This document shows positions 1 through 16,205 of a DNA stretch of 16,205 nucleotides, in pieces (within the stretch, counting starts at the first letter, position 1; the number at the start of each line of letters is the position of its first letter). The translations under genes were made by a program, and so were the position numbers. The DNA is from Endomicrobiales bacterium (lineage in GTDB: Bacteria; Elusimicrobiota; Endomicrobiia; Endomicrobiales; JALOBY01), in assembly GCA_963796955.1 (NCBI GenBank), contig CAWCNJ010000001.1, positions 1-16,205 of the forward strand, given 5' to 3'. The notes under the pieces are model-generated. The model was given only the letters and a program-made list of their open reading frames with translations, was not told the origin of the DNA and made no database searches.

Positions 1-23
1 CCTTTACAGATGGAGTTCAACGT

Positions 24-280
24 TTAATTTAGCTGGGTACTCCTCCATGCCGCTGGGCAACTTTTTTCGCTTCTTGCTATGGCACGCCCGAGATTTTTTT
101 ACGGCCTGCTGAATGCAGCTGAGCAATTTTTCTCAACTTTGTCCGGGCCCCTGGGCCAGCAAGTCGGGGTAGGTTTAATTTCGTTTGCACTTTGAAGATC
201 TTGCTTTTAAGCACTTTTTCCATCTCTGCAAGTCTGCCGCGCATCGCCATTGCTTCTTTTGCCATTTTAAATAATTCCAT
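24..280 (-). pseudogene. ybaB: Degraded mirror copy of ybaB/ebfC (probable artifact)
   Basis: Reads MELFKMAKEAMAMRGRLAEMEKVLKSKIF, then a deletion and frameshift relative to 1205..1504. Confidence 0.8.
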
Positions 281-281
281 G

Positions 282-544
282 TTACTCTCCCTTTCTATAA
301 TAAAAAAGTGCGCAAACGGTAAGCCTGTAAATAATACTATATTCGCCACGCAAAATGTTTTCCAGACTATATCGTGTGAATGAAGGCCCGAAGGGACACG
401 GCCGCAAGACACACCCAATACGCCCATGGTCCCGTTGACCACTGGAAATAATCTCAGAAGACTTGCGCTTAACGATTTTATGATCATGGGTATATTGGTA
501 AGCGGCAGCGCGATGGAGGCGACAAGAGCTATGGTTTCTATCAT
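282..544 (-). pseudogene. Degraded mirror copy of the SemiSWEET/PQ-loop gene (probable artifact)
   Basis: MIETIALVASIALPLTNIPMIIK and PSGLHSHDIVWKTFCVANIVLFTG are identical to the right-arm copy, interrupted by frameshifts. Confidence 0.8.
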
Positions 545-751
545 CCCTTTATCTGATCCGGGTACTGTTCAAGTTCGTCGTGGATTACCGACAATTCCTC
601 ACAATCCCGGCTTCTGCAACTGGTGCTATAATGCGCGGCGTGATACTGTTTTTCCGCCACAACGCGCTTTATGCCGCGTTAATTATCATTTTAGTGCAAA
701 CCAGGCAGGTCGAACAGCACGGTCCCGCTGCACGGGTGTGTTTCCACCAAC

Positions 752-940
752 GGCGGGACCATCGATAAAAAACTCAGTTGCGGGCTGGTATGCACTAAAA
801 TGATAATTAACGCCGGCATAAAGCGCATTGTGGCCGAAAAACGGTATCACGCCGCCGCATTATCGCGCCAGTTCCTGCAGGAAGCCGGCATGGAATTGTC
901 GGTAATCCACGACGAACTTGAACAGTATCCGGATCAATAA
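752..940 (+). CDS. dCMP deaminase (ComEB-like cytidine/deoxycytidylate deaminase), C-terminal part only; 5' end lost at the fold-back point
   Basis: 791-940 reads CTKMIINAGIKRIVAEKRYHAAALSRQFLQEAGMELSVIHDELEQYPDQ*. The mirror arm supplies the preceding CLVC, giving the zinc-binding (P)CxxC followed by KMIINAGIKRIV, typical of dCMP deaminases. Not in the ORF track. Confidence 0.8.
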   Translation, partial: GGTIDKKLSCGLVCTKMIINAGIKRIVAEKRYHAAALSRQFLQEAGMELSVIHDELEQYPDQ

Positions 941-944
941 AGGG

Positions 945-1203
945 ATGATCAGAAACCATAGCTCTTGTCGCTTCCATCGCGCTGCCGCTTACCAATATAC
1001 CCATGATCATAAAAATGGTTAAGCGCAAGTCTTCTAAAGATATTTCCATGATCTGGGCAGTCGGCGTGTGGGTGTGTCTTGCGGCCATGCTGCCTTCGGG
1101 CCTTCATTCACACGATATAGTCTGGAAAACGTTTTGCGTGGCGAATATAGTATTATTTACAGGCGTTACCGTTTGCGCACTTTATTATAGAAAGGGAGAG
1201 TAA
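945..1203 (+). CDS. SemiSWEET / PQ-loop (MtN3) family small transporter, ~85 aa, with an apparent 1-nt insertion at ~950
   Basis: Removing the C in ATGATCAGAA gives MIETIALVASIALPLTNIPMIIKMVKRKSSKDISMIW...ANIVLF...YRKGE, as read in the mirror copy. It has three hydrophobic helices, a P-x-I-I-K..K-S-S-K-D-I-S motif and a conserved AN in the last helix. Confidence 0.8.
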
Positions 1204-1204
1204 C

Positions 1205-1504
1205 ATGGAATTATTTAAAATGGCAAAAGAAGCAATGGCGATGCGCGGCAAGCTTTCAGAGATGGAAAAAGTGCTTAAAAGCAAGATCTTCGAAGTCAAC
1301 GCCGACGGCCTTACTGTAAAGGTGAACGGTAAATCTGAATTCCTTGAAATTAAACTTACCCCAGAACTGCTGGCCCAGGGCCCGGACAAAGTTGAGAAAA
1401 AATTGCTCAGCTGCATTCAGCAGGCCGTAAAAAAATCTCAGGATGCCATGGCCGAAGAAGCGAAAAAAGTTACCGGCGGCATGAAGATACCCGGCTTAAA
1501 TTAA
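1205..1504 (+). CDS. ybaB: YbaB/EbfC family nucleoid-associated protein
   Basis: 99 aa with an N-terminal helix, GLTVKVNGK..LEIKL.PELL and a C-terminal AVKKSQ..MAEE..KVTGGMKIPG. RBS GGGAG upstream. Confidence 0.93.
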   Translation: MELFKMAKEAMAMRGKLSEMEKVLKSKIFEVNADGLTVKVNGKSEFLEIKLTPELLAQGPDKVEKKLLSCIQQAVKKSQDAMAEEAKKVTGGMKIPGLN

Positions 1505-1509
1505 ACATT

Positions 1510-1544
1510 AAACTCCGTCTGTTAAAGCAGCCGGAGTTTCTTTT
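1510..1544 (+). terminator. Rho-independent terminator after ybaB
   Basis: AAACTCCG-T-CTG...CAG-C-CGGAGTTT stem followed by CTTTT. Confidence 0.75.
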
Positions 1545-1547
1545 ACC

Positions 1548-1576
1548 TTGACAAGGATACATTTGTATCCTATACT
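1548..1576 (+). promoter_or_regulatory. Sigma70 promoter of lexA cassette
   Basis: TTGACA (1548-1553), 17 nt spacer, TATACT (1571-1576). Confidence 0.88.
1554..1571. promoter_or_regulatory. Palindromic operator, candidate LexA (SOS) box
   Basis: AGGATACA-TT-TGTATCCT is a perfect 8-bp inverted repeat filling the -35/-10 spacer of the lexA promoter. Confidence 0.75.
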
Positions 1577-1613
1577 AACCATAGAGCGTTTATCGTATAG
1601 AATGGAGATGAAC

Positions 1614-2201
1614 ATGGAACAAGTTTCAGGACGGCGTAAGGATATCTTAGATTTTGTTACTGCCCATACCGCGGAAACCGGCTCAGCACCCACCTTGCGC
1701 GAGATAGCCAGCCATTTCCGTATCACGGTAGGGCCGGTGCAAAGGCATCTGGCCGCGCTTGTTGGCGGCGGTTACCTGCAGCATGTTGCGGGTCGTTCCC
1801 GGGGGCTTGTAGCAGCAGGCCATAAGCCTATGGCCCGCCTGCCGGTCCTGGGCCGCGTTCCCGCAGGTATGCCCATGGAGGCTGTGGAAAGCATAGAAGA
1901 TTATATCTACGTTGACAAAGCCATAGTTAAAGCCGGCACCTATTTCGCCCTGCGGGTAAAAGGCGACAGCATGATAAACGCCGGCATTTACGATGGCGAC
2001 ACCGTAGTAGTGCGTCACCAGTCCACCGCCGAAGACGACGAGATAGTAGTAGCCAAAATAGACGGTGAAGCAACGGTCAAGCGCCTGCGCAAAAAAAATG
2101 ATACGGTTTTCCTTCAACCCGAGAACCCCCATTACCCCATCATCCGCGCCGATAACATAGAAATAGTAGGCAAAGTTGTTTATTTGACGAGAAAGATATA
2201 G
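1614..2201 (+). CDS. lexA: LexA SOS repressor (winged HTH plus S24 peptidase)
   Basis: PTLREIA helix-turn-helix, Ala-Gly cleavage site in GRVPAGMP, catalytic Ser in VKGDSM and catalytic Lys in ATVKR. Start placed at ATG 1614 after GGAG (1604-1607), not at the ORF-track TTG 1548, which is the -35 box. Confidence 0.96.
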   Translation: MEQVSGRRKDILDFVTAHTAETGSAPTLREIASHFRITVGPVQRHLAALVGGGYLQHVAGRSRGLVAAGHKPMARLPVLGRVPAGMPMEAVESIEDYIYVDKAIVKAGTYFALRVKGDSMINAGIYDGDTVVVRHQSTAEDDEIVVAKIDGEATVKRLRKKNDTVFLQPENPHYPIIRADNIEIVGKVVYLTRKI

Positions 2202-2210
2202 CAGGTATTT

Positions 2211-2459
2211 ATGGATTCGGAAATAATTGATGAAGTTATTGATGTGGGGGCGGTGTTCGGGAAGGCTGGGATAAAACCGAAATGGTTCGTATGGGAAGGG
2301 CGCAAATACGCCCTTAAAGAAGTGGCCTACACCTGGAAAGATACCGAGGGAAATTCGGTGATCATGCATTTTTCGGTAACAGACGGTGCGACTCAATTCG
2401 AACTCACCTTTAACCAAAAATCAATGGTTTGGCGATTGGCTCGAACTGCTGTGGTTTAG
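2211..2459 (+). CDS. Small beta-rich protein, DUF6504-like, associated with Y-family polymerases
   Basis: 82 aa with the pattern P.WF.WEGRKY...EV...W......HFSV.....FEL.F......W.L. It lies 9 nt after lexA, with AGG upstream. Family assigned from memory of the motif, not from a search. Confidence 0.7.
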   Translation: MDSEIIDEVIDVGAVFGKAGIKPKWFVWEGRKYALKEVAYTWKDTEGNSVIMHFSVTDGATQFELTFNQKSMVWRLARTAVV

Positions 2460-2526
2460 AATTTAGAGACTGTTCGTGGCCTCTCGGCTTGAATGCTTAT
2501 ACTACGTATGCGAGTTGGCTGTATAT

Positions 2527-2724
2527 CGTGAAGGGTGTCCAAGTTTTTCCCGGCCTCGGTAGATGCACTTCGATCGGCATATTCTGCGGTCGCGAACTTG
2601 CCCCGTACCCCTCTTCAACAGACTTTGGAACGGGGCTTCAAACAGGCGCGACCGAAGGAAAGAATATGCCTCACTCGTTGACGCATCAAGCTCGGCCTAC
2701 GGAAAAACTCGGACACCCTTCACG
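2527..2724 (-). ncRNA. Rod-shaped structured element, copy A (unknown RNA or ssDNA motif)
   Basis: Nested stems 2527-2550/2701-2724 (23 of 24 paired), 2552-2555/2694-2697, 2562-2566/2683-2687, 2576-2584/2662-2670, 2587-2594/2647-2654 and 2600-2606/2630-2636. The single A-C mismatch in the outer stem is G-U on the minus strand. Confidence 0.65.
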
Positions 2725-2741
2725 GGTGTTTACAATGTATG

Positions 2742-2930
2742 CGGCGGAGTTGCTTGTGCGTAGTAAATCCCTCTAGCCGACAATGAGGTGAGCGATCTTC
2801 ATTCCTTCGGCTCAGCTGTTTGAGCCCCACTCCAAAGTATTTTGAATGGGGTGTGGGGCGAGTTCTGAGCCGGCGAAGATAGCGATCCGAAATGGCTAGC
2901 CGGATTTACGAAGCACAAGCAACTGCGCCG
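2742..2930 (+). ncRNA. Rod-shaped structured element, copy B (inverted homolog of copy A)
   Basis: Nested stems 2742-2746/2926-2930, 2748-2759/2913-2924, 2763-2770/2902-2909, 2773-2778/2894-2899, 2792-2800/2875-2883, 2808-2815/2865-2872 and 2824-2830/2853-2859. Includes a GUA/GAA internal loop and tandem GA pairs. Confidence 0.7.
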
Positions 2931-2988
2931 GACCAAACTTTTGTTAAGCGCGAGAGGTGTAACAAGTAGGTGTATGAGGTGTTAAATT

Positions 2989-4311
2989 ATGGAAAAAACA
3001 ATTGTCTTGCTTGATATGAATGCATTTTTTGCCTCGGTGGAACAGGTTTGTAATCCGGCTCTAAAGGGGAAGCCTATTGGGGTGTGCGGCGAACGGGTTC
3101 GGCGCTCTGTGGAGGGGGCGGACGGCAAGGTTCATACGGTGGGTGTGCCGATCCGCAGTATAATCACTACCTGTTCTTATGAGGCGCGGGCGCGCGGCGT
3201 AAAGACCGCCATGAGCATTTATGAGGCTCTTAATGCATGCCCCGAACTTATACTGGTGCCCGGTAATATGGATAAATATATTGATACTTCCCGGCGCATT
3301 CACGCGGCGCTGCTGGAATTTACCGATCAGGTTGAAGTGTATTCGATCGACGAATGTTTTATGGATATAACGCATCTGGTAAAAGGGCCTGAGGATGCGA
3401 AGAACGTTTGCCGGGATATTAAAAGACGTATAAAAGAAGAAACCGGTCTGCTTTGTTCCATCGGCGTCGGCCCCAATAAAATGCTGGCGAAGCTGGGCAG
3501 CAAGATGCAAAAGCCCGACGGGCTGGTGGAACTGCACGCAGAAGATGTGCCTGAGAAAGTTTGGCCACTGCCGCTTGAAAAGTTGCAGGGTGTGGGCATT
3601 GGTCCGCGCCTGTGCGAACGTTTGAACCGGCTTGGGATACGTAGCGCGGGAGATCTTGCCCGTACCGATGCAAGGCAGATGGTGGTGCATTTCGGCATAT
3701 ACGGGCATACGCTGCGCGATATAGGCCTCGGCCTGGGCAGCGACCATGTGCGGGGATATTATGAATATGACCAGGCCAAATCCGTTGGACACAGTTATAC
3801 CCTGCCGCGCGATACCTCGGACCTTAAGGTGATAAAGGCATATTTACGCACGCTTTCAGAGCGCGTGGGGGTGCGCATGAGGGAGGCGGGCCTGGTGGGG
3901 CGGACCGTCAGCTGTTATTTGCGGTTTGGGGATTTTTCGGGCATAGGTCGTCAGCATGCGTTAAAGGCCTGTATTAGTTCCGGTGTTGATATATATACGG
4001 CCGCTTGCGGGATATTAAGAGAGTTTCTGCCGTTGAACCAGCCGGTAAGGCTGGTGGGCGTAACCATGTCGGAAGTCGTGCTGGATGGCGGTCAGCAGTT
4101 GTTGTTCGAGGATATGCGAAAACGGGAAACCTTTGAGCACGCGGTGGACGAGATAAATAAGAAGTACGGCGAGTTCACCGTTAAACCAATGGCCGTCATG
4201 GTCTCTGATAATTTTGGCGATGATAAGAAAGTAGGGGCCTTCGGCAAATATTTCATGGGCGGCCCCCCGAAGGATTATCTGGGCGGATTGATAAAGCCGA
4301 AGATCAAATAA
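2989..4311 (+). CDS. dinB: Y-family translesion DNA polymerase IV (DinB)
   Basis: Motifs LDMNAFFASVE, CSYEAR..GVK..M, YSIDECF, SIGVGPNKMLAKLGS...KPDG, HhH GIG and little finger KSVG. RBS GAGGTG upstream. Confidence 0.96.
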   Translation: MEKTIVLLDMNAFFASVEQVCNPALKGKPIGVCGERVRRSVEGADGKVHTVGVPIRSIITTCSYEARARGVKTAMSIYEALNACPELILVPGNMDKYIDTSRRIHAALLEFTDQVEVYSIDECFMDITHLVKGPEDAKNVCRDIKRRIKEETGLLCSIGVGPNKMLAKLGSKMQKPDGLVELHAEDVPEKVWPLPLEKLQGVGIGPRLCERLNRLGIRSAGDLARTDARQMVVHFGIYGHTLRDIGLGLGSDHVRGYYEYDQAKSVGHSYTLPRDTSDLKVIKAYLRTLSERVGVRMREAGLVGRTVSCYLRFGDFSGIGRQHALKACISSGVDIYTAACGILREFLPLNQPVRLVGVTMSEVVLDGGQQLLFEDMRKRETFEHAVDEINKKYGEFTVKPMAVMVSDNFGDDKKVGAFGKYFMGGPPKDYLGGLIKPKIK

Positions 4312-4492
4312 CCCGTTTTTTTATTTTCCAGTTTTTATAGGCGATAAGACCGAAGTGCACAAGCCCAAAACCAAGGGTAATGAAAGCGATTACAATATGA
4401 AAGGGGAACACGTGAAAAATGCCGGCCGCAAAGGTCAGCAGCAATGAAATTCCCGCCAGAATACCCGTAAAATTGATCAATTTAAAAAGCAT
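4304..4492 (-). CDS. Small two-helix membrane protein with His residues (hypothetical)
   Basis: 62 aa, two hydrophobic segments, H-x13-H in the second, basic tail. Starts 2 nt after the rubredoxin stop and overlaps the dinB 3' end by 8 nt convergently. Confidence 0.7.
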   Translation of the reverse strand: MLFKLINFTGILAGISLLLTFAAGIFHVFPFHIVIAFITLGFGLVHFGLIAYKNWKIKKRVI

Positions 4493-4494
4493 TG

Positions 4495-4653
4495 TTATTG
4501 TTTAGAGAATTCCGATTTAGGAGCGCCGCAGACCGGACAAACCCACGTATCGGGTATTTTGTCGAACGGGGTGTTCGGCGCCACGTGATTATCCGGATCT
4601 CCTTCGGCAGGGTCATAAACGTAGCCGCAGACATTGCAAATGTATTTGTCCAT
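4495..4653 (-). CDS. Rubredoxin (52 aa), missed by the ORF track
   Basis: [52 protein letters not shown], with CxxCGY and WxCPxCG motifs. RBS GGAGGA at 4658-4663. Confidence 0.97.
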
Positions 4654-4665
4654 TTTATCCTCCAT

Positions 4666-5181
4666 TCAGCTGAGTGCCGGCGCTGCATAGGTTGCCGCGT
4701 TCTTCGGTGTTTTTCCGCCCTTTATAAGATGGTAATCGCTATAGGTAAGGGGCGCGGCCGCGCTCACTATTTTTGCTTCTGTTACATCGGCGATAAATAA
4801 CGTGTGGCTGCCGGCATCGGCGGTCTCTATCACCGACGCTTCAATATAGCCTGTGCAATAGTCCGTCGGGATGGGGCAGCCGTTCACGCCGACGATAGAC
4901 TGTATCCCGTCGAATTTTTTTATGTCCCTGCCCGTTTTAAAACCGAACCGGCCTATGAATATAAGAGGTGTGTCTATCGATAAGATCGATGCGGAGAACT
5001 TGCGGCTTTTAATAAGAAGATCGTGGGTATAATTGAGCTTGTTGATGCTGGTTAAAACCCGTACCGGCTGCGCGGTAACCTGGAACATGGTGTTAACGAT
5101 CTGGCCGTTCGAGATGCCGTCCACCGAAGTGCTGACAATATACATTCCATAATTCAGTTTATGCAGTGCTTGAAGGTCCAC
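4666..5181 (-). CDS. Flavin reductase-like (flavoredoxin) protein, N-terminal domain of high-molecular-weight rubredoxin type
   Basis: Motifs YGMYIVS, NGQIVNT.FQVT..P, SINK.NYTH, FGFKTGRD..KF, GSHTLFIA.V and PLTY..YH..KGGKTPKNA.TY. GTG start with GGGAG RBS. Confidence 0.92.
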   Translation of the reverse strand: MDLQALHKLNYGMYIVSTSVDGISNGQIVNTMFQVTAQPVRVLTSINKLNYTHDLLIKSRKFSASILSIDTPLIFIGRFGFKTGRDIKKFDGIQSIVGVNGCPIPTDYCTGYIEASVIETADAGSHTLFIADVTEAKIVSAAAPLTYSDYHLIKGGKTPKNAATYAAPALS

Positions 5182-5217
5182 GGGCTCTCCCAGGTTGCGT
5201 CTGTTGGTACCGCCATA

Positions 5218-5246
5218 ATTGTAGTTTTTAAGGAGGATACTGTCAA
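5218..5246 (-). promoter_or_regulatory. Sigma70 promoter for the flavin reductase-rubredoxin operon
   Basis: Minus strand TTGACA (5246-5241), 17 nt spacer, TACAAT (5223-5218). Confidence 0.8.
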
Positions 5247-5248
5247 GG

Positions 5249-5277
5249 TTGACATTTTCAAAAAGTTATTGTAAACT
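5249..5277 (+). promoter_or_regulatory. Sigma70 promoter for the lacI-glucanase operon
   Basis: TTGACA (5249-5254), 17 nt spacer, TAAACT (5272-5277). Confidence 0.8.
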
Positions 5278-5283
5278 CATGAT

Positions 5284-5297
5284 TGAAAGCGGTTACA
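5284..5297. promoter_or_regulatory. LacI-family operator (cre-like)
   Basis: TGAAAGCGGTTACA fits TGWAANCGNTNWCA with a central CG. It lies at the predicted transcription start, directly upstream of a LacI-family gene. Confidence 0.85.
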
Positions 5298-5324
5298 TTC
5301 AGCCTGAATTTTGAGGAATGTCAG

Positions 5325-6344
5325 ATGAGCATAACGATAAACGAGTTAGCCGATAAATGCGGTGTTTCCACGGCAACAGTTTCACGCGTTCTTAACAACA
5401 GTACGCTGGTGCGCGAAGATACGCGCAAGCGTGTGCTCGACGAGATAAGGTCAAGCAATTATCAGCCGAACTTGATGGCGCGCGCCTTAAGCCGTAACCG
5501 GACCGATACCATCGGTCTTTTCATTCCGCCTGAAACCGTATTGTTCTCTTCGGACTATTTCGCCGGTATCATCCACGGCATGGGCGACGCCGCCCGTATT
5601 CACCGTTTTGATCTGCTGCTGAGCATTCCGCCCGAAGGCGTTCCCTACAGCTATTCGCAGGCCTGGGAAATGAAGCGCTGCGACGGAGTGCTGCTGATAG
5701 CCCCTCTGAAGAACGATCCGAACCTGGCCAGGCTCAAAGACATGAATATCCCGCTCGTGCTGATCAATACCACCTCGGATGATTTTTCCTGTGTCGACGT
5801 TGACAACGTTTCCGGCGCCTACCGGGCCGTTGAGCGCCTGATAGCCCTGGGCCACCGCCGCGTCGCGATAATAAACGGATTGCTGCAGGGTACCAACGGC
5901 ATGGACCGGTTCACCGGCTATCGCAACGCCCTTAAGGCGCACAATATAAATTTTGACACCGATCTTGTTACCGAGGGCGATTACGACCAGGCGAGCGGTT
6001 ACCGTGCCATGAGAAAGCTGCTGGCGCTGCAAAAGCGGCCCACGGCGCTGTTCGCCGCTAACGACAATATGGCCCACGGCGCCCTTATGGCGATCAGGGA
6101 CGCCAGGCTCAAAGTGCCGGAAGATATCGCGGTTATCGGTTTCGACGATCTGCATATCGCATCTCTGTCCACGCCGCGCCTTACCACCATGCGCCAGCCT
6201 CTGTATCAGCTGGGCAAGGCCGCCGTCAGCCTGTTATCCGAAAGGATCAGCGATGTTAAAGCGAAACCCCGCAAAATAATAATAGAACCCGATCTGATAG
6301 TACGGGAATCGTGCGACCCGGCACGGAGAGAGCATCATGCGTAA
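5325..6344 (+). CDS. LacI/GalR family transcriptional regulator
   Basis: [34 protein letters not shown] hinge, and a sugar-binding domain with [21 protein letters not shown] and PRLTT. ATG 5325 follows GAGGA. Confidence 0.96.
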
Positions 6345-7755
6345 AGCAGCGAAAGCCCTTGTTCTTTCGCTGACTATTTTTATCCTGTTTTCCATCGTAT
6401 CCGCAACGGCACATGCAGGTGATTTCCCTGATAACGAAACGCAGCGCGCACGCCTGATGCATTATGAACACGCGGGTACCCAGGACCTGGATACCAAACT
6501 TCCTGACAAAGATTTCCTGCTGCTGATCGCCAGTGATACCTGGGGATATTTTCGCGACATAGTTGACAGAGAGAACGCCCTCCCGCTGGATAACATCCTG
6601 GTTTTCAAAGACCACACCAACCCCAACAGTTATACTTCAGTGACCAACGTCGGCCTGTATCTCATGTGCGTTGTCTCTGCCTATGATCTTAAGTTCATAA
6701 CGCGCCAGCAAGCCCTTGACCGTATCACCAATACCATCAAAACGCTGGACCGCCTCACCACCTGGAACGGTTTGTTCTATAATTATTACGAAACCATCAC
6801 TCTAAAGAACAGCGGAAGTTTCATCTCATCCGTCGATAACGGCTGGCTTTTAGCGGGTCTGATCGTCGCGGGATCGGCGTTCAATGAAGTTGCGCCCGCT
6901 ACCGACAGGATCGTCAAGAGCGCTGATATGGGTAAACTCTACGATAAGTTCGAAGGACAGCTTTTTCTCGGCTACGACGTTGAAAAAGAAAAACTTTCGC
7001 CGTATCATTACGGGACCTTCTATTGTGAGCCGAGGCTTGCCTCCTATGTAACCATAGCGAAGGGCGATGCGCCGCCGCAGCACTGGTTTAAAATGTACCG
7101 CAGCATGCCGGAAAGCTGGACCTGGCAGAGCCAGCAGCCGGCCAAAGGCAAAGAGCATACGTACGAAAATGTAAAGGTGCAGGAAAATTATTACCAGCAC
7201 GATAAATTTAAATATCTGCCCAGCTGGGGCGGCAGCCTGTTCGAGGCATTGATGCCAACACTCGTGCTTAAAGAACAGGAGCTTGGTAAAAAAGGCCTGG
7301 CCATAAATAACAAAACCATGGTGGATGCGCATATCTGGTACGCGCTTAATGAAAAAAAATATAAGCTGTGGGGCATGTCCCCGTGCGCGATACCCGGCGT
7401 CATGACGGGGTATACGGAATACGGTGTGCCGTTCCTGGGCGTAAAAGGGTACGAAGACCTGCAGGTGGTAACCCCCCATGTAAGTTTCCTTGCTCTTTCA
7501 GTGAACCCTAAAGAAGCTCTGAAGAATATCCGCAATTTCGCGGCGGTGCCCGACATGTACGGCCTCTACGGTTTTTACGATGCCTATAATATGAAAAACG
7601 ATGTTATAGCCACTAAATATCTGTGCCTCGACCAGGCTATGACCTTGATCTCTATAAACAATTATCTTAATAAAGGTGCCATACGAAGCCGCTTCCATCA
7701 GGCCTCAATGATAAAGGCAAAAGAATATTTACTTGAAATTGAAGACATTTTTTGA
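6337..7755 (+). CDS. Secreted DUF3131/Glycoamylase-domain glycoside hydrolase of the beta-1,2-glucanase clan, resembling the middle domain of cyclic beta-1,2-glucan synthase
   Basis: Signal peptide (..TAHA). Motifs TWGYF, YTSVTNVGLYL, FYNYY, SSVDNGWL, EPRLASY, SWGGSLFEALMP, WGMSPC, VVTPH, YGFYDA and LDQAM. Confidence 0.85.
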   Translation: MRKAAKALVLSLTIFILFSIVSATAHAGDFPDNETQRARLMHYEHAGTQDLDTKLPDKDFLLLIASDTWGYFRDIVDRENALPLDNILVFKDHTNPNSYTSVTNVGLYLMCVVSAYDLKFITRQQALDRITNTIKTLDRLTTWNGLFYNYYETITLKNSGSFISSVDNGWLLAGLIVAGSAFNEVAPATDRIVKSADMGKLYDKFEGQLFLGYDVEKEKLSPYHYGTFYCEPRLASYVTIAKGDAPPQHWFKMYRSMPESWTWQSQQPAKGKEHTYENVKVQENYYQHDKFKYLPSWGGSLFEALMPTLVLKEQELGKKGLAINNKTMVDAHIWYALNEKKYKLWGMSPCAIPGVMTGYTEYGVPFLGVKGYEDLQVVTPHVSFLALSVNPKEALKNIRNFAAVPDMYGLYGFYDAYNMKNDVIATKYLCLDQAMTLISINNYLNKGAIRSRFHQASMIKAKEYLLEIEDIF

Positions 7756-7778
7756 TAAAAGGTACAGATGGGGCACTC

Positions 7779-9815
7779 ATGAAAAATGGTATTCTCCTTT
7801 CCTTAGCTCTTGTCGCGACCTTAGTTACTTGTGCGCCCGCTCAGGTGATAGACCCTTTAATAAGCACGGCTACCTGGATAGCGTACGGTGATACGAACGG
7901 CGACACAGCGTCCCGTGTCGCAGCGAATATTACGCGCGATGGGATCAATTTGACGTATATGCTCTCCGGCGGCAGCTGGGCTGTTATCAGCAACGATTGT
8001 ACTTCCCTGAATTTTCTTGACGGCGACAGCGTTCGTTTTCTGTACAAAGGCGACGGCACCGATAACGACCTCCATGTCCAGCTGGTAGATCGCGACGGAA
8101 CGGTAAGTGTCGCCGTGTTGCCGCATGCTCTCGCCCACACCGAATGGACCGAAGAAACCCTGAACCTGCCCTATATGACCGACGGTGATTTTCCCTACGC
8201 AGGCTATGTGGCTACCGGCACGGTGATAGGCTCAGGCCTTCCGTTCTCGCCTCAGAGCGCTGCAGGCCAGCAGTCCCTGGACCGCCAGCGCATTCTGGCA
8301 ATGGGATTCGTTGAAAGTTCCGTTACCTGGAACTCCGGTTCTTTTACAATAGACAACATCCGCCTTATGTCCCACGGTAAAAATCTTATCTATGTAGAAG
8401 ATTTTGACGGCGTGCCGGGGACAAATAAGATCGCCCCCAATATCATGGTCGGAACGACCCCGGTTTCAGTGAACGGCGCTTTTAATTCCACCGCGCCCGA
8501 TTTCGGATTGGGCTATTGCGCGGCCGCGCGTGTTACCCAGGCGGCTTCAGGTAATGCGGCGTTGAGGCTTGACTACGATGTTACGAACGCCAGCAGTTTT
8601 TCAGGGTTTTTCACGAACCTGGTCAACACCGATATCAGCCGCACTAAATTTCTTTCATTTAAGGTCCGTGGTTTTTCCGGCGGGGAAAAATTCAACATAA
8701 AGCTGCGGCCGAACCCGGTGACCGCCCATGTGAGCATCACGGACTACGTTACGGTCAGTCAACAATGGCAGCAGGTCCTTATCCCGCTCACCGATTTTGT
8801 GAACCTTATTACTACCGGCTCCCTGAGCGGCGGGACTACCACTTCGAATGCCGATCAGCTGATCTTTGAATTCAATCACGACCTGCTCGCACCGTTCTCC
8901 GGGACTATTTATCTGGACGACATAAAGTTCGTGAACGCGGCAATGGACGATGCGGCGCTCGTCTCGACGATCGACGGTATGGATGACCAGCCCAATGCGC
9001 TCGGTCCCTGGCAGCGTTTCGGTGATTATGCAAATTCGCTGGCGAGCGTCCCGGGTGCCTCCGGCAGGCTTGGCGATAATGCAGTACGCTTTGATTACAG
9101 TTACAATCCGGCCGGCGCTCAAAATAACAATGGCTGGGCCGCATTGCAACGATACCTTAAACCGAATTTTACGCAGATCAATTCCTTCAGCTTTAAGTAC
9201 GCGGGCACCGGCGGGCCGGATGACATTGAATTCAATGTAAAAGATCTAAACGGCGTGTCCTATTGCCGTAAGTTTTTCGGGGTCAGCAACACCGGCGGTC
9301 AATGGGTCAGCGCTACCGTGCCTATCAACGAACTCGCCCTGCTTGTTTCCAGCGGTACTACCAAAACGCTCGATCTCAGGAATATCGCGAAAGTGGAACT
9401 GGGTATCAGTCGCGGCGGCGCTTCTTCCGGCAGGGGTTCTGTCGCGTTCAAAGATCTGGAGAATTCGGACAACTCGTTACAGTCGGCGTCCGGCAATGCC
9501 GTGCTCGACAGTCTCCAGGTACCGGATAATCCGTTCTCGCCGAACGGCGATGGTTTGAAAGATAAGGCGCGATTCATTTATAAACTGAAACAGAGCGCGA
9601 CGGTGAAACTGGAGATATACGCGCTCAAAGGCGAGAGGGTACGCCGTATAGAGGCGGGTAACATCGGCGATCTTGACGTTCATGTTATAGAGTGGGACGG
9701 TACGGACGACAGCGGCACCCGGGTTAATAACGGTTTGTATCTTTACCGCTTTTTTGTCGATAATAACTTCGGGCAGACGGATAAGGTGATAAACCTTATA
9801 GGGGTGATACGCTAA
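7779..9815 (+). CDS. Secreted protein with three CBM11/CIA30-like beta-sandwich modules and a C-terminal FlgD-Ig / T9SS type-B-like sorting domain
   Basis: Repeated pattern L..Y....F..(K/R)G.G....W....(I/L)P....G.(I/F)..D.I.(F/L) three times. The C-terminus has NPFSPNGDG.KD...F.Y.L....V.LEIY...GE.VR.....WDG.D.SG..V.NGLYLY. Confidence 0.8.
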   Translation: MKNGILLSLALVATLVTCAPAQVIDPLISTATWIAYGDTNGDTASRVAANITRDGINLTYMLSGGSWAVISNDCTSLNFLDGDSVRFLYKGDGTDNDLHVQLVDRDGTVSVAVLPHALAHTEWTEETLNLPYMTDGDFPYAGYVATGTVIGSGLPFSPQSAAGQQSLDRQRILAMGFVESSVTWNSGSFTIDNIRLMSHGKNLIYVEDFDGVPGTNKIAPNIMVGTTPVSVNGAFNSTAPDFGLGYCAAARVTQAASGNAALRLDYDVTNASSFSGFFTNLVNTDISRTKFLSFKVRGFSGGEKFNIKLRPNPVTAHVSITDYVTVSQQWQQVLIPLTDFVNLITTGSLSGGTTTSNADQLIFEFNHDLLAPFSGTIYLDDIKFVNAAMDDAALVSTIDGMDDQPNALGPWQRFGDYANSLASVPGASGRLGDNAVRFDYSYNPAGAQNNNGWAALQRYLKPNFTQINSFSFKYAGTGGPDDIEFNVKDLNGVSYCRKFFGVSNTGGQWVSATVPINELALLVSSGTTKTLDLRNIAKVELGISRGGASSGRGSVAFKDLENSDNSLQSASGNAVLDSLQVPDNPFSPNGDGLKDKARFIYKLKQSATVKLEIYALKGERVRRIEAGNIGDLDVHVIEWDGTDDSGTRVNNGLYLYRFFVDNNFGQTDKVINLIGVIR

Positions 9816-10693
9816 TGCGACCTTTGGGTATGCGAAGCCTGTTGGTTATAGCGGGGGTGCTGGGCGGCTGTTTCACCGCGGTTTTTGCTTCGGCGCTCGG
9901 CGGCGCTTTCGATGATATTCCCGTCGGCGCCCGCGCCCGCGGCATGGGTGGCGCCTACACCGCCGTCTGCGACGACGCCAGCGGCATATACTGGAACCCT
10001 TCGGCGCTCGGGCGTATGCACAAAAGCGAATTGACGCTGTTCAACCAGGACCTGTACTCCCTGGGTCTGGTCAACTATTCGTTCGTAGGCTTTGCCTATC
10101 CCCATTTAGGCAACGGGACCATGGGGTTCGGCTGGATACGGCTCGGCACGACCCAGGGCGCCAGTATCCAAAATTACGCCGAAAATACGTACATAATCTC
10201 TTACGGGCAAAACATGAGCCGTAACACATACATCGGGTTAAGCATAAAATATTTTTCGGTGGATTATGATGTCAAGGCCGCCGGCTACGGCGCGGACGCG
10301 GCGATAACCTGCGACGTGATACCGAAACGACTGTCTTTCGCGTTTGCTCTGCAAAATATCAACCGGCCGGAGATCCGCTGGAATAGCGGTGCGTCCGATA
10401 ATCTGGAAAGCGTCGCGCATCTCGGCGCGGCCCTTAAAGTCGGCAGTGACCATACGCTTTCGGCTGACGCCAGTCAGAAGTACGGTCAGGATATGGAGTA
10501 TTCCCTCGGCTGGGAGTCGTTGTTGTTCAGCCGGCTGTTGGCGGTACGTTTCGGCGGCAACGAACTTAACGGCGTGCTGGATCCGTCGTTCGGCATCGGG
10601 GTGCGCTACCAGCAGGTAAAACTCGATTGCACCTTTGAAGAGAACAATGATCTGGGCCAGAGCATATTACTCGGTTTATCTTATACATATTGA
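9815..10693 (+). CDS. PorV/PorQ-like (FadL-related) outer-membrane beta-barrel
   Basis: VGARARGMGGAYTAVCDDASGIYWNPSAL signature, alternating beta strands and C-terminal LSYTY. Start overlaps the upstream stop (TAATG). Confidence 0.85.
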   Translation: MRPLGMRSLLVIAGVLGGCFTAVFASALGGAFDDIPVGARARGMGGAYTAVCDDASGIYWNPSALGRMHKSELTLFNQDLYSLGLVNYSFVGFAYPHLGNGTMGFGWIRLGTTQGASIQNYAENTYIISYGQNMSRNTYIGLSIKYFSVDYDVKAAGYGADAAITCDVIPKRLSFAFALQNINRPEIRWNSGASDNLESVAHLGAALKVGSDHTLSADASQKYGQDMEYSLGWESLLFSRLLAVRFGGNELNGVLDPSFGIGVRYQQVKLDCTFEENNDLGQSILLGLSYTY

Positions 10694-10790
10694 TCCGGAC
10701 GCGTAATTGAAGAAAAGGAGGTAACGGGAAGTACCCTTCGACGAGCTTCGATATTTTTGCAGTAATAATCCCAGAAAAAGGAGTCGTGAC

Positions 10791-11444
10791 ATGCGTAAAG
10801 TATCCATGTTGGTCCTGTGTCTTGCAGTTGGCTGTTCGTTGGTAAGCGTTGCAGACGCCGCACGCCGTAAAGCCGCAAAAGGCGATGACGCCGCCGCTCC
10901 TGCTGCTGCAGCCGCATCAGCTCCGGCCGCAAAGTCCCCGGATGTGCTTGGGGTCGCTGATTTCGACAGCGGTGCAAAGCCGAACGATATCGGCGGAGAT
11001 TTTGGCGCGTGGGATAAAGACCCTAATGATGATACCCAGGGTTGCCGCGAAGCTTTCTATTCACCGGGAGCGGACGGCAAGGGTAAATGCATTAAGCTTA
11101 CCTACGATGTTGATTCCCCGAACCCGGCGTATAACGGTTTCTGGATGAAGCTGGTGGACCGCGATCTGCGCCCCTACAACAAGCTGGTGTTCTATGTTAA
11201 GGGTGACAAAGAAGCCGGTTTTACCACCAAGATGAAAGTTGAGCTGAAGAACGGTTCAGAAGTAAGCCCGTACTACATCGACAACATTACGGACACCTGG
11301 CAGAAGATAGAACTGCCCCTGAAGTCCTTCAAACGCATCACCGACTGGAGCAAGATGAAAGAACTGGTGCTGGTGTTCGAAGATTCGCAGGCGACGGTAA
11401 AGAGCGGCGTGATCTACTTCGATAACGTCTCGTTCGAAAAATAA
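10791..11444 (+). CDS. Secreted single-module CBM11/CIA30-like carbohydrate-binding protein
   Basis: Signal peptide, Ala-rich linker, then VADFD...GG.FGAW...YDVDSPNPAYNGFWMKL...FYVKGD...WQKIELPL..F..ITDW...GVIYFDNVSF. Strong AAGGAG RBS. Confidence 0.85.
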   Translation: MRKVSMLVLCLAVGCSLVSVADAARRKAAKGDDAAAPAAAAASAPAAKSPDVLGVADFDSGAKPNDIGGDFGAWDKDPNDDTQGCREAFYSPGADGKGKCIKLTYDVDSPNPAYNGFWMKLVDRDLRPYNKLVFYVKGDKEAGFTTKMKVELKNGSEVSPYYIDNITDTWQKIELPLKSFKRITDWSKMKELVLVFEDSQATVKSGVIYFDNVSFEK

Positions 11445-11458
11445 GCCTATAGTACTAT

Positions 11459-11495
11459 AGCCATGGGCCGGAGGGTAACCCTTCGGCTCATGGCT
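11459..11495 (+). promoter_or_regulatory. Intercistronic 17-bp stem-loop (mRNA stabiliser or partial terminator)
   Basis: AGCCATGGGCCGGAGGG-TAA-CCCTTCGGCTCATGGCT. Both non-Watson-Crick pairs are G-U on the + strand. No U tract follows. Confidence 0.8.
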
Positions 11496-11504
11496 CAGCT
11501 TATT

Positions 11505-12557
11505 ATGAATAAAGGATCATTTATCTGCGCCATGATGGTAATAATGTCCCTGGCCTGTTCGGCAGAGGCGAAGCTTTTGTTGATAGATGATTTTAATTCC
11601 GGCGGCAACAAGAACAAGCTCGGTGGTATGCAGGGAGATTGGCAGGCGGACCCCAACGATGAGACGCAGGGCAATGAATGTATCTACACCTCCAGTGATA
11701 ATTTCATGGGCAGCGCTGGAAAAAGCCTGCGCATTACCTATGACGTGGATTCAAAGAACCCCGCCTACAACGGTTACTGGATGAAGCTCAACGGGGTGGA
11801 TGCACGGCCCTATAATCAGGTGATCTTCTTTGCCCGCGGGGATGAGAGTTACGGTTTCCCGACCCGCTTCAACGTAGAGATCAAGAACGACTCCCAGGTC
11901 GGCAAATATACGGTACGCGGGATAGACCCGAAGTGGCGGAAGTTCGTTATACCTTTTGATTCCTTTGAAGGTATTACCGACTGGTCGTCACTGAGCGAGT
12001 TCGTGCTTGTTTTCGCCGATACCAGCATAGACCAGAAGGTCGGGCGCATTTATTTTGATGACCTTTATTTCAGCGACGGAGAGGCGCCCGAGGCCCCAAA
12101 GCCTGCACCCGCGCCGCCTCCCCAACCGGTCGTTACCGGCGCGCCGCTTAACATGGATTCCATTTTGCTGGCAGCGCAAAAGGAAAAACTTGAAGTGAAG
12201 ATGGAAGATAACGCGGTCGTTATAACGGTACATATCAATTTTGCCTCTAATAGATCCACTCTGGACGGTGCTGAAAAAGACAAGCTTGCCTCTGTTGTCG
12301 ATATTTTAAACAAGTATCCTGATCTGAAAGTGCGCGTGGAAGGCTATACAGATAACGTCGGTGATGAGAAGATCAATCAGAAACTTTCACTTTTGCGCGC
12401 CCGGACCGTCGGGAAGACCCTGACGGTCGCGGGGGTTAATAAAACGCGGATAATTGCCATTGGGAAAGGGAAAACGGATCCCATAGCACCTAATTCAACG
12501 GCTGAGGGAAGGGCGAAGAACCGCCGTGTGGTCTTTGTTATCGAGAAGCAGAAATGA
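11505..12557 (+). CDS. CBM11-like module plus Pro-rich linker plus OmpA-like peptidoglycan-binding domain
   Basis: Signal peptide (..SAEA), module paralogous to 10791..11444, and PEAPKPAPAPPPQP linker. OmpA motifs INF, VEGYTDNVG...NQKLS..RA, GKG...P and NST.EGRAKNRRV. Start uncertain; ATG 11463 and 11490 lie within the hairpin. Confidence 0.88.
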   Translation: MNKGSFICAMMVIMSLACSAEAKLLLIDDFNSGGNKNKLGGMQGDWQADPNDETQGNECIYTSSDNFMGSAGKSLRITYDVDSKNPAYNGYWMKLNGVDARPYNQVIFFARGDESYGFPTRFNVEIKNDSQVGKYTVRGIDPKWRKFVIPFDSFEGITDWSSLSEFVLVFADTSIDQKVGRIYFDDLYFSDGEAPEAPKPAPAPPPQPVVTGAPLNMDSILLAAQKEKLEVKMEDNAVVITVHINFASNRSTLDGAEKDKLASVVDILNKYPDLKVRVEGYTDNVGDEKINQKLSLLRARTVGKTLTVAGVNKTRIIAIGKGKTDPIAPNSTAEGRAKNRRVVFVIEKQK

Positions 12558-13798
12558 AGCGGATAATTAAACGGGTGCTTGGTTTGCTGCCGCTGTTGGT
12601 GCTGATCACGACAGGCGTACCCTCACAGGCCGCGCTGTCGCTGCTGATCGATGATTTCAACAACGCCAAAGCGATAAACAAGATCGGCGGCAACACCGGC
12701 TGCTGGTCGTGTAACCCGCAGGACATAAACCAATATTGTGATGCCACTTTCGTTACGGACCCGCGGGTCGGCGGCGAAGGGTATGCCTTACGGCTTGATT
12801 ATAACCAGACGACGCCGAACGATTATATCGCCGGGTTCCCGAAACTGGCTTATAACGGGTATTTCAGCCAGCTCAAGCTGAAAAAATTCACCAAGATGAA
12901 ATTTCTGGTCATCAGTATCAAAGGGGATGAAGCGCTGGGTTACACGCACAACCTTACCCTGCAGTTGAAGAATAGCAACCAGGTAGGCAATTATAAGCTG
13001 GAAGGGATCAGCGAAAAATGGCAGCGCTTTGTGATACCGTTGAAAAGGTTTGACGGTATAACCGATTGGTATTACATGAAAGAACTGGTGATAGTATTTG
13101 ATGAAAAAGCCACCAGGCATACCGGCACGATCTACATTGACGATATATCTTTTACCGACAGTCCGTTCCCCCGGAGCGCGGTGGCGCTTTACACGAAGCC
13201 GACGAAAAAAGGGCCAGGTATACTTATAGATGGTGATAACGCGGACTGGCACGGATCGAAGATCGAGTTTTCGGCGTCAGATGATCTTCAGTCGGGTGCC
13301 GTAAAAGACCCTCAGGCGGCATTCGCCCGGTGCACGTTCCAGTGGGATGAAGACTATCTGTACCTGTTCGCCAATGTCAACGACCGGGAGCTGGTATGCA
13401 CGAAATCCGGCTCGGACATAGGCTTCGACGATTGTCTGGAACTGTTCATATCTTCGCGCGGTACGACGGGCGCCCGCAAAGAGGAAGAATTCCTTCATTT
13501 TGGGTTCTCTCCCGCAGGGCCTGAAGTATGGGAATGGAAAAGCAATACAGAGCCGGATGAAGACGCGGTTCATTTGGCCGCAAAGACCGGCGCCTGTCAG
13601 GGCTTAAAAGGCTACCAGATAGAAGCCGCGATACGCTGGAAATATCTGGGCATAACGCCTGTTGAGGGTACAAAGATAAGCCTGAGCCCTGCGGTGCATG
13701 ATTTCGACCTGAAAAACGATTCGAATGGTAAATATACCTGGTTCTATATGCACGAAGGCGACAAAGTGCAGCTTGGCGAATTGATACTGAAAAAATAA
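12554..13798 (+). CDS. Secreted CBM11-like module plus CBM9/DOMON-like sugar-binding domain
   Basis: Third paralogous module (LLIDDFN..NKIGG..AYNGYF..KGD..WQRFVIPL..F.GITDW..GTIYIDDISF), followed by IDGD..DW, WDEDYLY....VND, DCLELF and GYQIEAAI.W..LG. ATGA overlap with the upstream gene. Confidence 0.85.
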   Translation: MKRIIKRVLGLLPLLVLITTGVPSQAALSLLIDDFNNAKAINKIGGNTGCWSCNPQDINQYCDATFVTDPRVGGEGYALRLDYNQTTPNDYIAGFPKLAYNGYFSQLKLKKFTKMKFLVISIKGDEALGYTHNLTLQLKNSNQVGNYKLEGISEKWQRFVIPLKRFDGITDWYYMKELVIVFDEKATRHTGTIYIDDISFTDSPFPRSAVALYTKPTKKGPGILIDGDNADWHGSKIEFSASDDLQSGAVKDPQAAFARCTFQWDEDYLYLFANVNDRELVCTKSGSDIGFDDCLELFISSRGTTGARKEEEFLHFGFSPAGPEVWEWKSNTEPDEDAVHLAAKTGACQGLKGYQIEAAIRWKYLGITPVEGTKISLSPAVHDFDLKNDSNGKYTWFYMHEGDKVQLGELILKK

Positions 13799-13808
13799 CG
13801 GAGGGCGC

Positions 13809-14468
13809 ATGGCACCGGATGAGAAGGCCTTTAAACGCACCAACTACCTGGTAGACAAAAGTATGCAGCTGCGTTACATAGCATACAATGCGGGTTCCAC
13901 GCTTGTGTTCTCTCTGGTGATCGCGCTCGGCATCTATTTCGGTATCTGGTATTCGGTCACCAAAGAGTTTTCAACGATACGGTTCAGCGAAGACATGCAG
14001 ACCATCAACCGGCTGCAGCAGTATGAGAGCGTGCGCACGCGTCAGGCGATCATGAACATGCCCTTTGTCGGCGAGCAGGTGAAAGCCCTGAGTGACCATC
14101 AGCAGCAGGTGCTTAGTGATATCCTGGCAAGGACCAACCGCAGGCTTATTCCCGTGATAGTCGCCTTGTTCGTTTTTGTGTTGTTGTCCACCCTGTTGTT
14201 AACGCACAGGATAGCCGGGCCCATGTACCGTATGCGCAAGAACCTGGAAATGATCTCCGGCGGCAACCTGAAAGTTAATTTCATTCTCCGTGAAAAGGAT
14301 CAGGGCAAGGAACTGGCCGCGGGGTTAAGCCGTATGGTAGGCGATTTTTCTGCGACACTTAAAAAGGTCTCTGGTGCCACAGCCTTGATAAAAACCGCCA
14401 AAACCGAAGAGGAAAGGAACCGTCTGACAGCGGAAATAGAAGCGGCTCTTTCGCGTTACACCATCTAA
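13809..14468 (+). CDS. Two-TM inner-membrane protein with HAMP domain and no output domain
   Basis: R..YLVDK.MQLRY, TM1, ~60 aa helical loop, TM2, then THRIAGPMYRM...L..I..GNL......R.KD...ELA and a short coiled tail. GGAGG RBS. Confidence 0.82.
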   Translation: MAPDEKAFKRTNYLVDKSMQLRYIAYNAGSTLVFSLVIALGIYFGIWYSVTKEFSTIRFSEDMQTINRLQQYESVRTRQAIMNMPFVGEQVKALSDHQQQVLSDILARTNRRLIPVIVALFVFVLLSTLLLTHRIAGPMYRMRKNLEMISGGNLKVNFILREKDQGKELAAGLSRMVGDFSATLKKVSGATALIKTAKTEEERNRLTAEIEAALSRYTI

Positions 14469-14470
14469 CT

Positions 14471-15721: not shown

Positions 15722-15748
15722 TAACAGACAAACCCACTTGGAGGGGTC

Positions 15749-16205
15749 ATGTACCGTCGCTTATCGCTTCCGGTCCTTACTTTAATGCTGCTTTCAGTTA
15801 CGCTGCCTGCCGGTGCCGCAATGATAGACGATTTTGATTATGTAAAGCAGAGCGCCTTTCAGTTCAAGGACGACGCCGGTTCAACGTTGTCGGCGGGCGC
15901 CAAACCCGCCGAGGCCGACCGGGGCCGCGTCATGGTTCTGGATTATGATATAAAGCCCAAAGGCTGGGCGGGTTGGGGCCTGAACCTGGGCGGGCTGAAC
16001 GTTACCGACAGCGATTTCCTGTCTTTTATGGTCAAGGGCTCTGCTGAAGGAGAAAAATTCGATATCGGCCTTCTGGATAAAAAGGCGCTGAAAAAAATGG
16101 ACGCCTCGGCCTATCTGGAGGTAACGAAGGAATGGCGGTACTGTAAAGATCCCTCTTACCGCTTTTGCCGGTGTTGATACCAGAACCGTGGATTCTTTTG
16201 TGATA
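15749..16205 (+). CDS. Secreted CBM11-like protein, 3'-truncated by the window, apparent frameshift at ~16139
   Basis: Signal peptide, MIDDFD...LDY...GWAGWG...LSFMVKG...GEKFDIGL. Removing one base gives EWRTVKIPLTAFAGVDTRTVDSFVI, the expected W..V.IPL..F motif, open to the end. Confidence 0.8.

Follow-up and report, generated by a model that had tools for sequence, protein, structure and literature searches.

Two back-to-back rod hairpins in an Endomicrobiales SOS cassette as copies of a dispersed hairpin repeat absent from Rfam

Two rod hairpins between DUF6504 and dinB

What are the two long hairpins that stand back to back in the SOS cassette of an Endomicrobiales bacterium, and do they have anything to do with the genes around them? 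The window, i.e. the whole stretch of 16,205 nt that was analysed (CAWCNJ010000001.1, positions 1 to 16,205), had been described in an initial annotation as carrying an unrecognised structured ncRNA family or a REP/REPIN-like element, placed where it could control dinB. The features concerned are listed below. The favoured strand of each rod was assigned from folds, mismatch polarity and DNA-parameter folds.

1548..1576 (+): sigma-70-like promoter TTGACA-17-TATACT, context
1614..2201 (+): lexA (PF01726 and PF00717), context, outside the element
2211..2459 (+): DUF6504 gene (PF20114, E 3e-5), 5' flank of the insertion
2527..2724, favoured folded strand (-): copy A rod hairpin, A subfamily
2595..2644 (-): conserved core of A, consisting of TGTTTGAAGC (2644-2635), apical hairpin and GCAAGTT (2601-2595)
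2725..2741, no strand: 17-nt spacer between the 5' ends of A and B
2742..2930, favoured folded strand (+): copy B rod hairpin, B subfamily
2817..2864 (+): conserved core of B, consisting of TGTTTGAGC (2817-2825), apical hairpin and GCGAGTT (2858-2864)
2989..4311 (+): dinB / Y-family polymerase (PF00817 and PF11799), 3' flank

Both hairpins are real and fold far better than shuffled sequences. The minimum free energy is -98.9 kcal/mol for copy A (z -9.44) and -89.9 kcal/mol for the reverse complement of copy B (z -9.19), and none of 200 shuffles equalled either value; the opposite strands are more stable still, with -107.9 (copy A) and -96.2 kcal/mol (copy B). The outer arms were also detected as inverted repeats, I11 (24 nt, 96%) and I7 (37 nt, 86%). 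The unpaired blocks said to be shared by the two copies, and the stems quoted with them, are present in the order claimed, and the outer stems are unrelated in sequence between the two subfamilies, as had been noticed. The stems had also been called fully covarying and paired; the covariation holds, but the pairing is not complete, as there is one T-C mismatch in the B stem GCTATCTTC/GAAGATCGC. Each window copy folds with one apical hairpin whose large loop has no GNA tip. Inside the rods, the core of A has the GAAG/CAAG form of an internal motif and the core of B the GAG/CGAG form, and the latter may be read as tandem G-A pairs. A strict kink-turn was rejected on inspection, the bulge length and flanking pairs not fitting, and an outward -35 hexamer (TTGACG) in A was dropped as a promoter for lack of a -10 box.

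The start of the contig (C1, window 1-1525) holds a separate structure, a degenerate 1.5-kb inverted repeat with its centre near 745. The alignment of its arms reaches 82% with 83 gaps, and the frames of the left arm are broken; a fold-back artefact of assembly at the contig end is the probable cause.

Copies, favoured strand and spread

The host genome (G000, 2.1 Mb, 81% complete) contains 10 copies according to BLAST, nhmmer and a covariance model, R1. Six of them form three A+B doublets (in the window and on contigs C7 and C6); of the other four, one is of A type and three are single B copies. The neighbouring genes are unrelated to each other, e.g. queA, glnS and sugar-nucleotide genes. 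A similar core is also found in two more distant rods (C6:44016 and C10:50287). The two other doublets have spacers unlike that of the window pair. B copies are 0.86-0.93 identical to each other and A copies 0.64-0.77, compared to only 0.59-0.66 between A and B; therefore a doublet brings together members of two old subfamilies and did not arise by local duplication, in agreement with the earlier statement that the pair is no recent duplication. An origin of the outer stems as inverted copies of neighbouring gene ends was rejected, since the A arms resemble each other from copy to copy and are situated outside genes.

Some individual copies have features of their own. Copy C7A has a 57-nt insert in one arm (G000:C7, about 74295-74350) with two small hairpins; the insert carries GTGCC(GCA)GGCAC, with the C(GCA)G tip on the folded strand. 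Directly after copy C6c there is a separate perfect REP-like palindrome (GAGGTCTCGTCTGGTTGTCCCC..., G000:C6, about 98145-98190). Upstream of copy C8a, a glycosyltransferase-like ORF (G000:C8, 229638-230798) appears to run into the element and to have its stop inside the 5' arm.

Covariation was evaluated on two alignments. RNAalifold on nine genome copies gave two-sided change in 22 of the 34 consensus pairs. With 23 matches, which are related sequences fitted to the model, so that the alignment leans towards structure, two-sided change was found in 31 of 34 pairs, 91.1% of cells were paired, and the covariation score was 0.655 compared to 0.201 for shuffled and at most 0.108 for slid alignments.

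The strand on which the rods are selected is indicated by isolated mismatches. On the AACTC strand, which is the strand aligned in the initial annotation, A-C mismatches outnumber G-T mismatches, by 10:0 among the 12 local rods and by 61:19 among 98 rods of other genomes. The reverse strand also folds better in all 10 copies with RNA parameters, and in both window copies with DNA parameters. We therefore take the folded strand to read TGTYTGA...GAGTT. The earlier claim of selection on single-stranded structure is supported, the favoured strand being opposite to the one aligned there. G-T polarity is equally compatible with RNA and with DNA. A change on one side of the internal loop goes with a change on the other (GAG/CGAG 104, GAAG/CAAG 12, mixed 1+1), counted over lineages which are not independent, and such coupling would fit non-canonical tandem G-A pairing.

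Since the favoured strand is (-) for A and (+) for B, the window pair points outward. The same arrangement, already proposed as a divergent doublet, dominates elsewhere: among 150 of the 156 matches listed, neighbouring pairs within 2 kb were divergent in 10 cases, convergent in one and tandem in none (n=11), or divergent in 7 of 8 when the host genome is left out. On inspection, three doublets in another genome (G011) likewise join two different types. The folded strand lies mostly on flanks of negative GC skew (34 of 49; 15 of 20 for singles within the order). Elements of the IS200/IS605 type act on the lagging-strand template. The skew observed here is the opposite of what action on that template predicts, which argues against it.

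Plain BLAST of the doublet gave no match in 40 relatives, in plasmids or in phages, so that outside the host genome it was the covariance models alone that reached homologues. Building and searching such a model had been proposed at the outset, and it did recover further homologues in this genome and others. Model R1 matched in 7 of 150 genomes of the phylum. The broader model R2 was positive in 20 of 40 genomes, the own genome included, with 0-40 copies per genome; these counts are lower bounds, with 75 candidates per genome scored, and the copies used in training match by construction. R2 has a poor consensus structure (16 pairs) and works mainly as a sequence profile. The core pattern TGTYTGA-hairpin-GAGTT was found at at least 122 loci in many phyla which, by genome labels, include Pseudomonadota, Bacteroidota, Thermodesulfobacteriota, Omnitrophota and Patescibacteria. 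The rod cut was passed by 92 of 125 distinct core-pattern matches. This energy cut admits GC-rich false positives (22 of 106 passed in a looser viral scan, with about three true rods by eye), and therefore the 92-98 rods of the genome scan may include a few false ones. In viral contigs the strict core pattern had no match, and two looser ones gave mostly chance matches.

Known repeat families and the search for a mobiliser

The window gave no family match in Rfam 15, apart from one chance match far off (RgsA, E 0.39). Twenty homologous loci gave none on the rods, and only tRNA and Flavo-1 RNA outside them, so the novelty claimed for the element stands with respect to Rfam. 6S RNA (RF00013) was rejected, as the host has its 6S RNA elsewhere (C8:104536-104687) and the element has 10 copies. 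We found no matching description of the element or its short core in searches of one open-access library, although the supplement of preprint 10.64898/2026.09.22.753630 may hold such variants. In summary, the element is real and absent from Rfam, and is of a kind already known, namely dispersed hairpin repeats, with extended TwoAYGGAY as next of kin.

Extended TwoAYGGAY (RF01731; PMC2864571; 10.64898/2026.09.22.753630) has, as far as the accessible part of the preprint describes it, an elongated basal stem, a 3' pseudoknot and variable copy number; its doublets are divergent in 68.4% of cases and its mobility is left unresolved there. Like it, the present element occurs as rods scattered between genes, each with a long basal stem; in both, copy number varies strongly, doublets are divergent and mobility is unexplained. 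In addition, a U-rich GGTTAC/GTRAC hairpin module follows 36 of 98 related rods on the folded strand and is present in most of the order relatives shown. When viral contigs were scanned for this 3' module, it was found behind TwoAYGGAY elements (with an RF01731 match in L297) as well as behind loop rods. The differences are also clear. The present element is a single rod with the TGTYTGA/GAGTT motif in place of AYGGAY-loop hairpins, it occurs in many phyla, its relatives have DNA-type tips, and the 3' module was not found at any of the ten local copies. Membership of the host copies in RF01731 was rejected, with a single apical hairpin in the folds and no model match in the host genome at E<=10. 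Judged by sequence, the window copies, which have no AYGGAY loops, would be relatives of extended TwoAYGGAY by a chain of homology rather than members. Judged solely from 47 versus 48 copies, R200 of Pseudomonas fluorescens SBW25 (PMC2718517) is probably extended TwoAYGGAY.

The viral contigs gave several further observations on the module. Five of them abut it, namely L281, L309, L312 and L317 (all four at about 1480-1540) and L403 (about 2850-3040); four junctions are 13-16 nt before TTTGGTTAC and one is inside the module hairpin. Mu-like genes (MuF, Ner) are present in four of the five, L309 being judged by its end sequence only, and a Mu transposase family search was weak. It is possible that transposable phages target these repeats. 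Divergent element pairs also surround a single gene in two cases, a DUF2971 gene (L303/L403, one viral contig) and a 195-aa ORF with no Pfam match (L105), which could represent cargo capture.

REP/REPIN/BIME elements with TnpA-REP (RAYT, Y1 HUH; PMC8266576) are likewise non-autonomous, strand-specific imperfect hairpins with conserved mismatches and inverted doublets. Unlike them, the element is about 190 nt compared to 16-42 nt, it is conserved in the inner loop and not in the outer arm, and it shows neither linkage to nor co-occurrence with Y1_Tnp. Formal membership was rejected, there being no conserved GTAG/CGTC foot (GTAG is at the 5' foot in 1 of 6 B and 0 of 4 A copies), and so was a cognate RAYT flanked by repeats: the four Y1_Tnp matches in the host genome have their own short end repeats, and each is 20 kb or more away from every one of the ten copies. 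Of the initial annotation's two alternatives, the structured, uncatalogued and dispersed REP/REPIN-type character is thus retained without formal REP membership, and the ncRNA alternative is weakened by evidence given below. Contig C4 begins with a tandem duplication (G000:C4, 1-820) of the first 410 bases of a RAYT-like gene.

Bacterial MITEs include ERIC, Correia/NEMIS, RUP and bcr1. In the accessible part of PMC3184786, MITEs are short, non-coding and dispersed, form long hairpins and are often near gene ends, as is the case here. The terminal arms of the present element, on the other hand, are not conserved between subfamilies, and no cognate IS with the same ends is in the genome. A MITE with terminal inverted repeats common to an IS was therefore rejected, the A and B arms being unrelated and no IS end having been found in the host genome (BLAST word size 7; 81% complete). 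An IS91/ISCR or IS110 end was also rejected. Y2_Tnp occurs in 1 of 40 genomes, an element-free one, and in 0 of 14 control genomes, and the IS110 family Transposase_20 was not found in the host genome.

The search for a mobiliser gave no candidate. No transposase, reverse transcriptase or nuclease was among the Pfam matches of 16 main window ORFs, as had been stated, and the proposed tabulation of flanking genes (93 nearest proteins) gave a mixed, mostly housekeeping set with one phage integrase and no recurring mobility gene. Y1_Tnp, RVT_1 and Y2_Tnp do not track with copy number across genomes: all three families are missing from G001 (13 copies, 99% complete) and from G038 (15 copies), and Y1_Tnp is absent in G001, G008, G035, G038 and G039 despite 6-15 copies each. 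Single element copies were found near Y1 genes in G005 and G006. A stand-alone GIY-YIG gene was rejected as mobiliser, as it is inside an operon with no element copy nearby. As for the ends, GA...GA flanks 3 of 4 B copies with GCAGTTG/CAAYTGC ends and is possibly part of the element, with no close empty site for comparison; no filled and empty sites were found that were similar enough to show where the element ends or whether there is a target duplication.

DNA-type tips and the competing explanations

The apical tips bear on whether the folded strand is DNA or RNA. On the folded strand there are 19 C(GNA)G triloops, compared to 4 in reverse, and such triloops occur in 18 of 94 elements versus 11 counts in 325 flank windows; RNA tetraloops are not enriched (GNRA 3, cUUCGg 0). 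The order-level set has two strict C(GNA)G hairpins in 28 elements, and C(GAA)G is its commonest apical tip at 3-bp stringency. The copies in Ralstonia and Variovorax have the short form TGTTTGA-GCG(A/C)AGC-GAGTT. In viral contigs, a GNA loop on the TGTYTGA strand was found in 115 stretches (60 distinct contexts, 26 with a rod), compared to one stretch for an equally specific flipped-loop control.

Some of these 60 contexts stand near phage origins: seven follow a Vibrio inovirus origin-like hairpin and two are near a rolling-circle-like nonanucleotide. In all three annotated Vibrio inoviruses examined, an origin-like hairpin is followed at a distance of about 65 nt by TGTTTGA-GCG(N1-2)AGC-GAGT, with a tip of 3 or 4 nt, which reads on the rstA-sense strand. 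The rstA-sense strand is the one that is packaged. A rod-less short core motif was also observed in many small AT-rich viral contigs (L491, L536, L548, L555 and L609; L547 and L631), in 15, 14 and 10 near-identical contexts; a plasmid search with L491 and a phage search with L631 gave no match covering the motif.

According to the accessible parts of the two sources, GCGNAGC is an extra-stable DNA mini-hairpin, the RNA form of the related GCGAAAGC is much weaker than the DNA form (both PMC13037366), and a Vibrio inovirus has a 167-bp ori(+) with several inverted repeats (PMC4439123); in those parts neither gives a role for the inovirus motif. The core in its short form, TGTYTGA-GCGNAGC-GAGTT, is like the GCGNAGC/GCGNNAGC mini-hairpins of G4, St-1, alpha3, RSF1010 ssiA and N4 (PMC13037366), and a near-identical motif follows the origin-like hairpin in the three inoviruses (compare PMC4439123). 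The element differs from these sites in being chromosomal, multicopy and inside a long rod, in having no initiator gene or nick site near it, and in having a longer hairpin in place of the tip in the host genome. The loop grammar appears to lean to DNA, on evidence borrowed from relatives, as the window copies lack the GNA tip.

We consider it somewhat more probable than all alternatives together (about 0.6) that the element is non-autonomous, that its folded DNA strand shows a motif to an ssDNA-handling protein, and that it spreads through an ssDNA intermediate. A and B are two diverged subfamilies of a widespread non-autonomous intergenic element and sit back to back at the DUF6504-dinB junction in this lineage. 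Selection acts on the element to fold as one particular single strand, most likely of DNA. The rod displays the conserved internal motif, in which TGTYTGA stands across from GAGTT and tandem G-A pairs may form, and most short relatives have the extra-stable mini-hairpin GCGNAGC as a cap. Under this explanation the motif may be a docking site for an ssDNA protein, either a host priming factor or an HUH-type enzyme acting in trans, and copies would spread through the ssDNA intermediate.

Alternatively, the element may be a multicopy structured RNA, a sister of the extended TwoAYGGAY RNAs with a different apical domain, which binds a protein via its internal motif or shapes mRNA processing (as an RNase III-type substrate) and spreads by an RNA step. 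The A-C/G-U polarity and tandem G-A pairs are compatible with RNA, the 3' module and divergent doublets are common to both (see above), and 5 of 6 B copies are on the sense strand between co-oriented genes. We nevertheless hold this explanation to be unlikely. It appears weakened because the loop grammar in relatives is DNA-type, with GNA triloops and not RNA tetraloops enriched. Furthermore, there is no RVT_1 in the host genome or most carriers, no sigma-70-like promoter was found in the spacer (2725-2741), and the host genome lacks both AYGGAY loops and an RF01731 match.

A bolder proposal goes the other way and has the whole superfamily, extended TwoAYGGAY included, consist of parasitic miniature ssDNA replicons and not RNAs. 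Each would have a host-recognised complementary-strand priming motif, common to the filamentous-phage origin region, on interchangeable rods, and the A+B doublet would be the working unit with one site per strand. We offer it as a speculation that is distinctly unlikely.

It is improbable, in our estimate, that the element is instead a chromosomal ssDNA signal useful to the host, i.e. a single-strand initiation or primosome-assembly-type site for replication re-priming or restart which multiplies slowly by recombination with no dedicated enzyme. Heterotypic back-to-back pairs would be left unexplained, the skew points away from the lagging-strand template, and the distribution is patchy, with 0-40 copies among close kin and none found in 20 of the 40 genomes searched. 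What speaks for it is the near-identical motif beside inovirus origins, the GCGAAAGC/GCGTTAGC mini-hairpins that mark the priming sites of G4, St-1 and alpha3 (PMC13037366, accessible part), the presence of PriA and the failure to find a cognate enzyme. To these may be added the orthologous Ralstonia site, the sole one tested; both species have the element there, and compensatory changes have accumulated at the site, which favours ongoing selection at the locus or arm-to-arm repair.

Repair of this sort is the basis of another explanation, in which the rods are neutral palindromes and only seem to covary, one arm being corrected from the other by template switching (quasi-palindrome correction). 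Hairpins are reported to arise and persist through template switching (10.1101/2021.04.15.439925, accessible part). The outer stems are near perfect yet unlike between copies, and template switching may contribute to them. As a full account it is very improbable and largely refuted by polarity and loop conservation: it would erase internal loops, which persist across phyla, and it predicts neither strand polarity nor the coupled loop forms (GAG/CGAG, GAAG/CAAG) nor divergent pairing.

Finally, the position of the doublet had suggested a cis-regulator of dinB, be it an attenuator, a processing switch or an SOS-linked RNA, and this hardly deserves credence: the nine other copies are beside unrelated genes, no terminator-like site was found on the sense strand, and the junction has no element in all other dinB loci examined. 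In its favour, the doublet is in a LexA-controlled operon and ends 58 nt before dinB. A perfect palindrome, AGGATACATTTGTATCCT (about 1554-1571), overlaps the lexA promoter, occurs once in the genome in its strict form, and is a candidate LexA operator of this lineage. The gap between DUF6504 and dinB is 530 nt here. Thirteen other dinB loci of the order were compared: nine retain the lexA-DUF6504-dinB arrangement with a gap of about 2-94 nt, and the remaining four have no lexA or DUF6504 within 1.5 kb. Model R1 had no match in the junction among 93 other dinB loci; in the closest dinB relative (89%) the sequence ends before the junction. Two other genomes have copies near the same cassette. 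In G002 (17 copies), the lexA-DUF6504-dinB cassette lies between two inward-facing copies (C129, 40006-43405), and G006 (at least 40 copies) has copies upstream; in both genomes they are within about 2 kb of the cassette. This speaks against wholly chance placement, and may reflect crowding in variable regions instead. The doublet is a passenger in the SOS cassette, and its effect on dinB, if any, is incidental, as two long stems in a LexA-controlled transcript.

The example carries a warning that covariation by itself does not prove RNA. For a known kind of repeat, the present analysis adds a strand polarity, the finding that doublets are divergent and heterotypic, a dinB junction that is empty in relatives, a tip of DNA type and the likeness to inovirus origins. 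How REP-like or TwoAYGGAY-type repeats multiply is an open question, and is still so in the accessible part of 10.64898/2026.09.22.753630. For one cross-phylum family missing from Rfam, we can now state the polarity, a short invariant core and a resemblance to a motif of inovirus origins, and this raises a testable question: does the folded DNA strand prime synthesis, or does it bind a specific protein?
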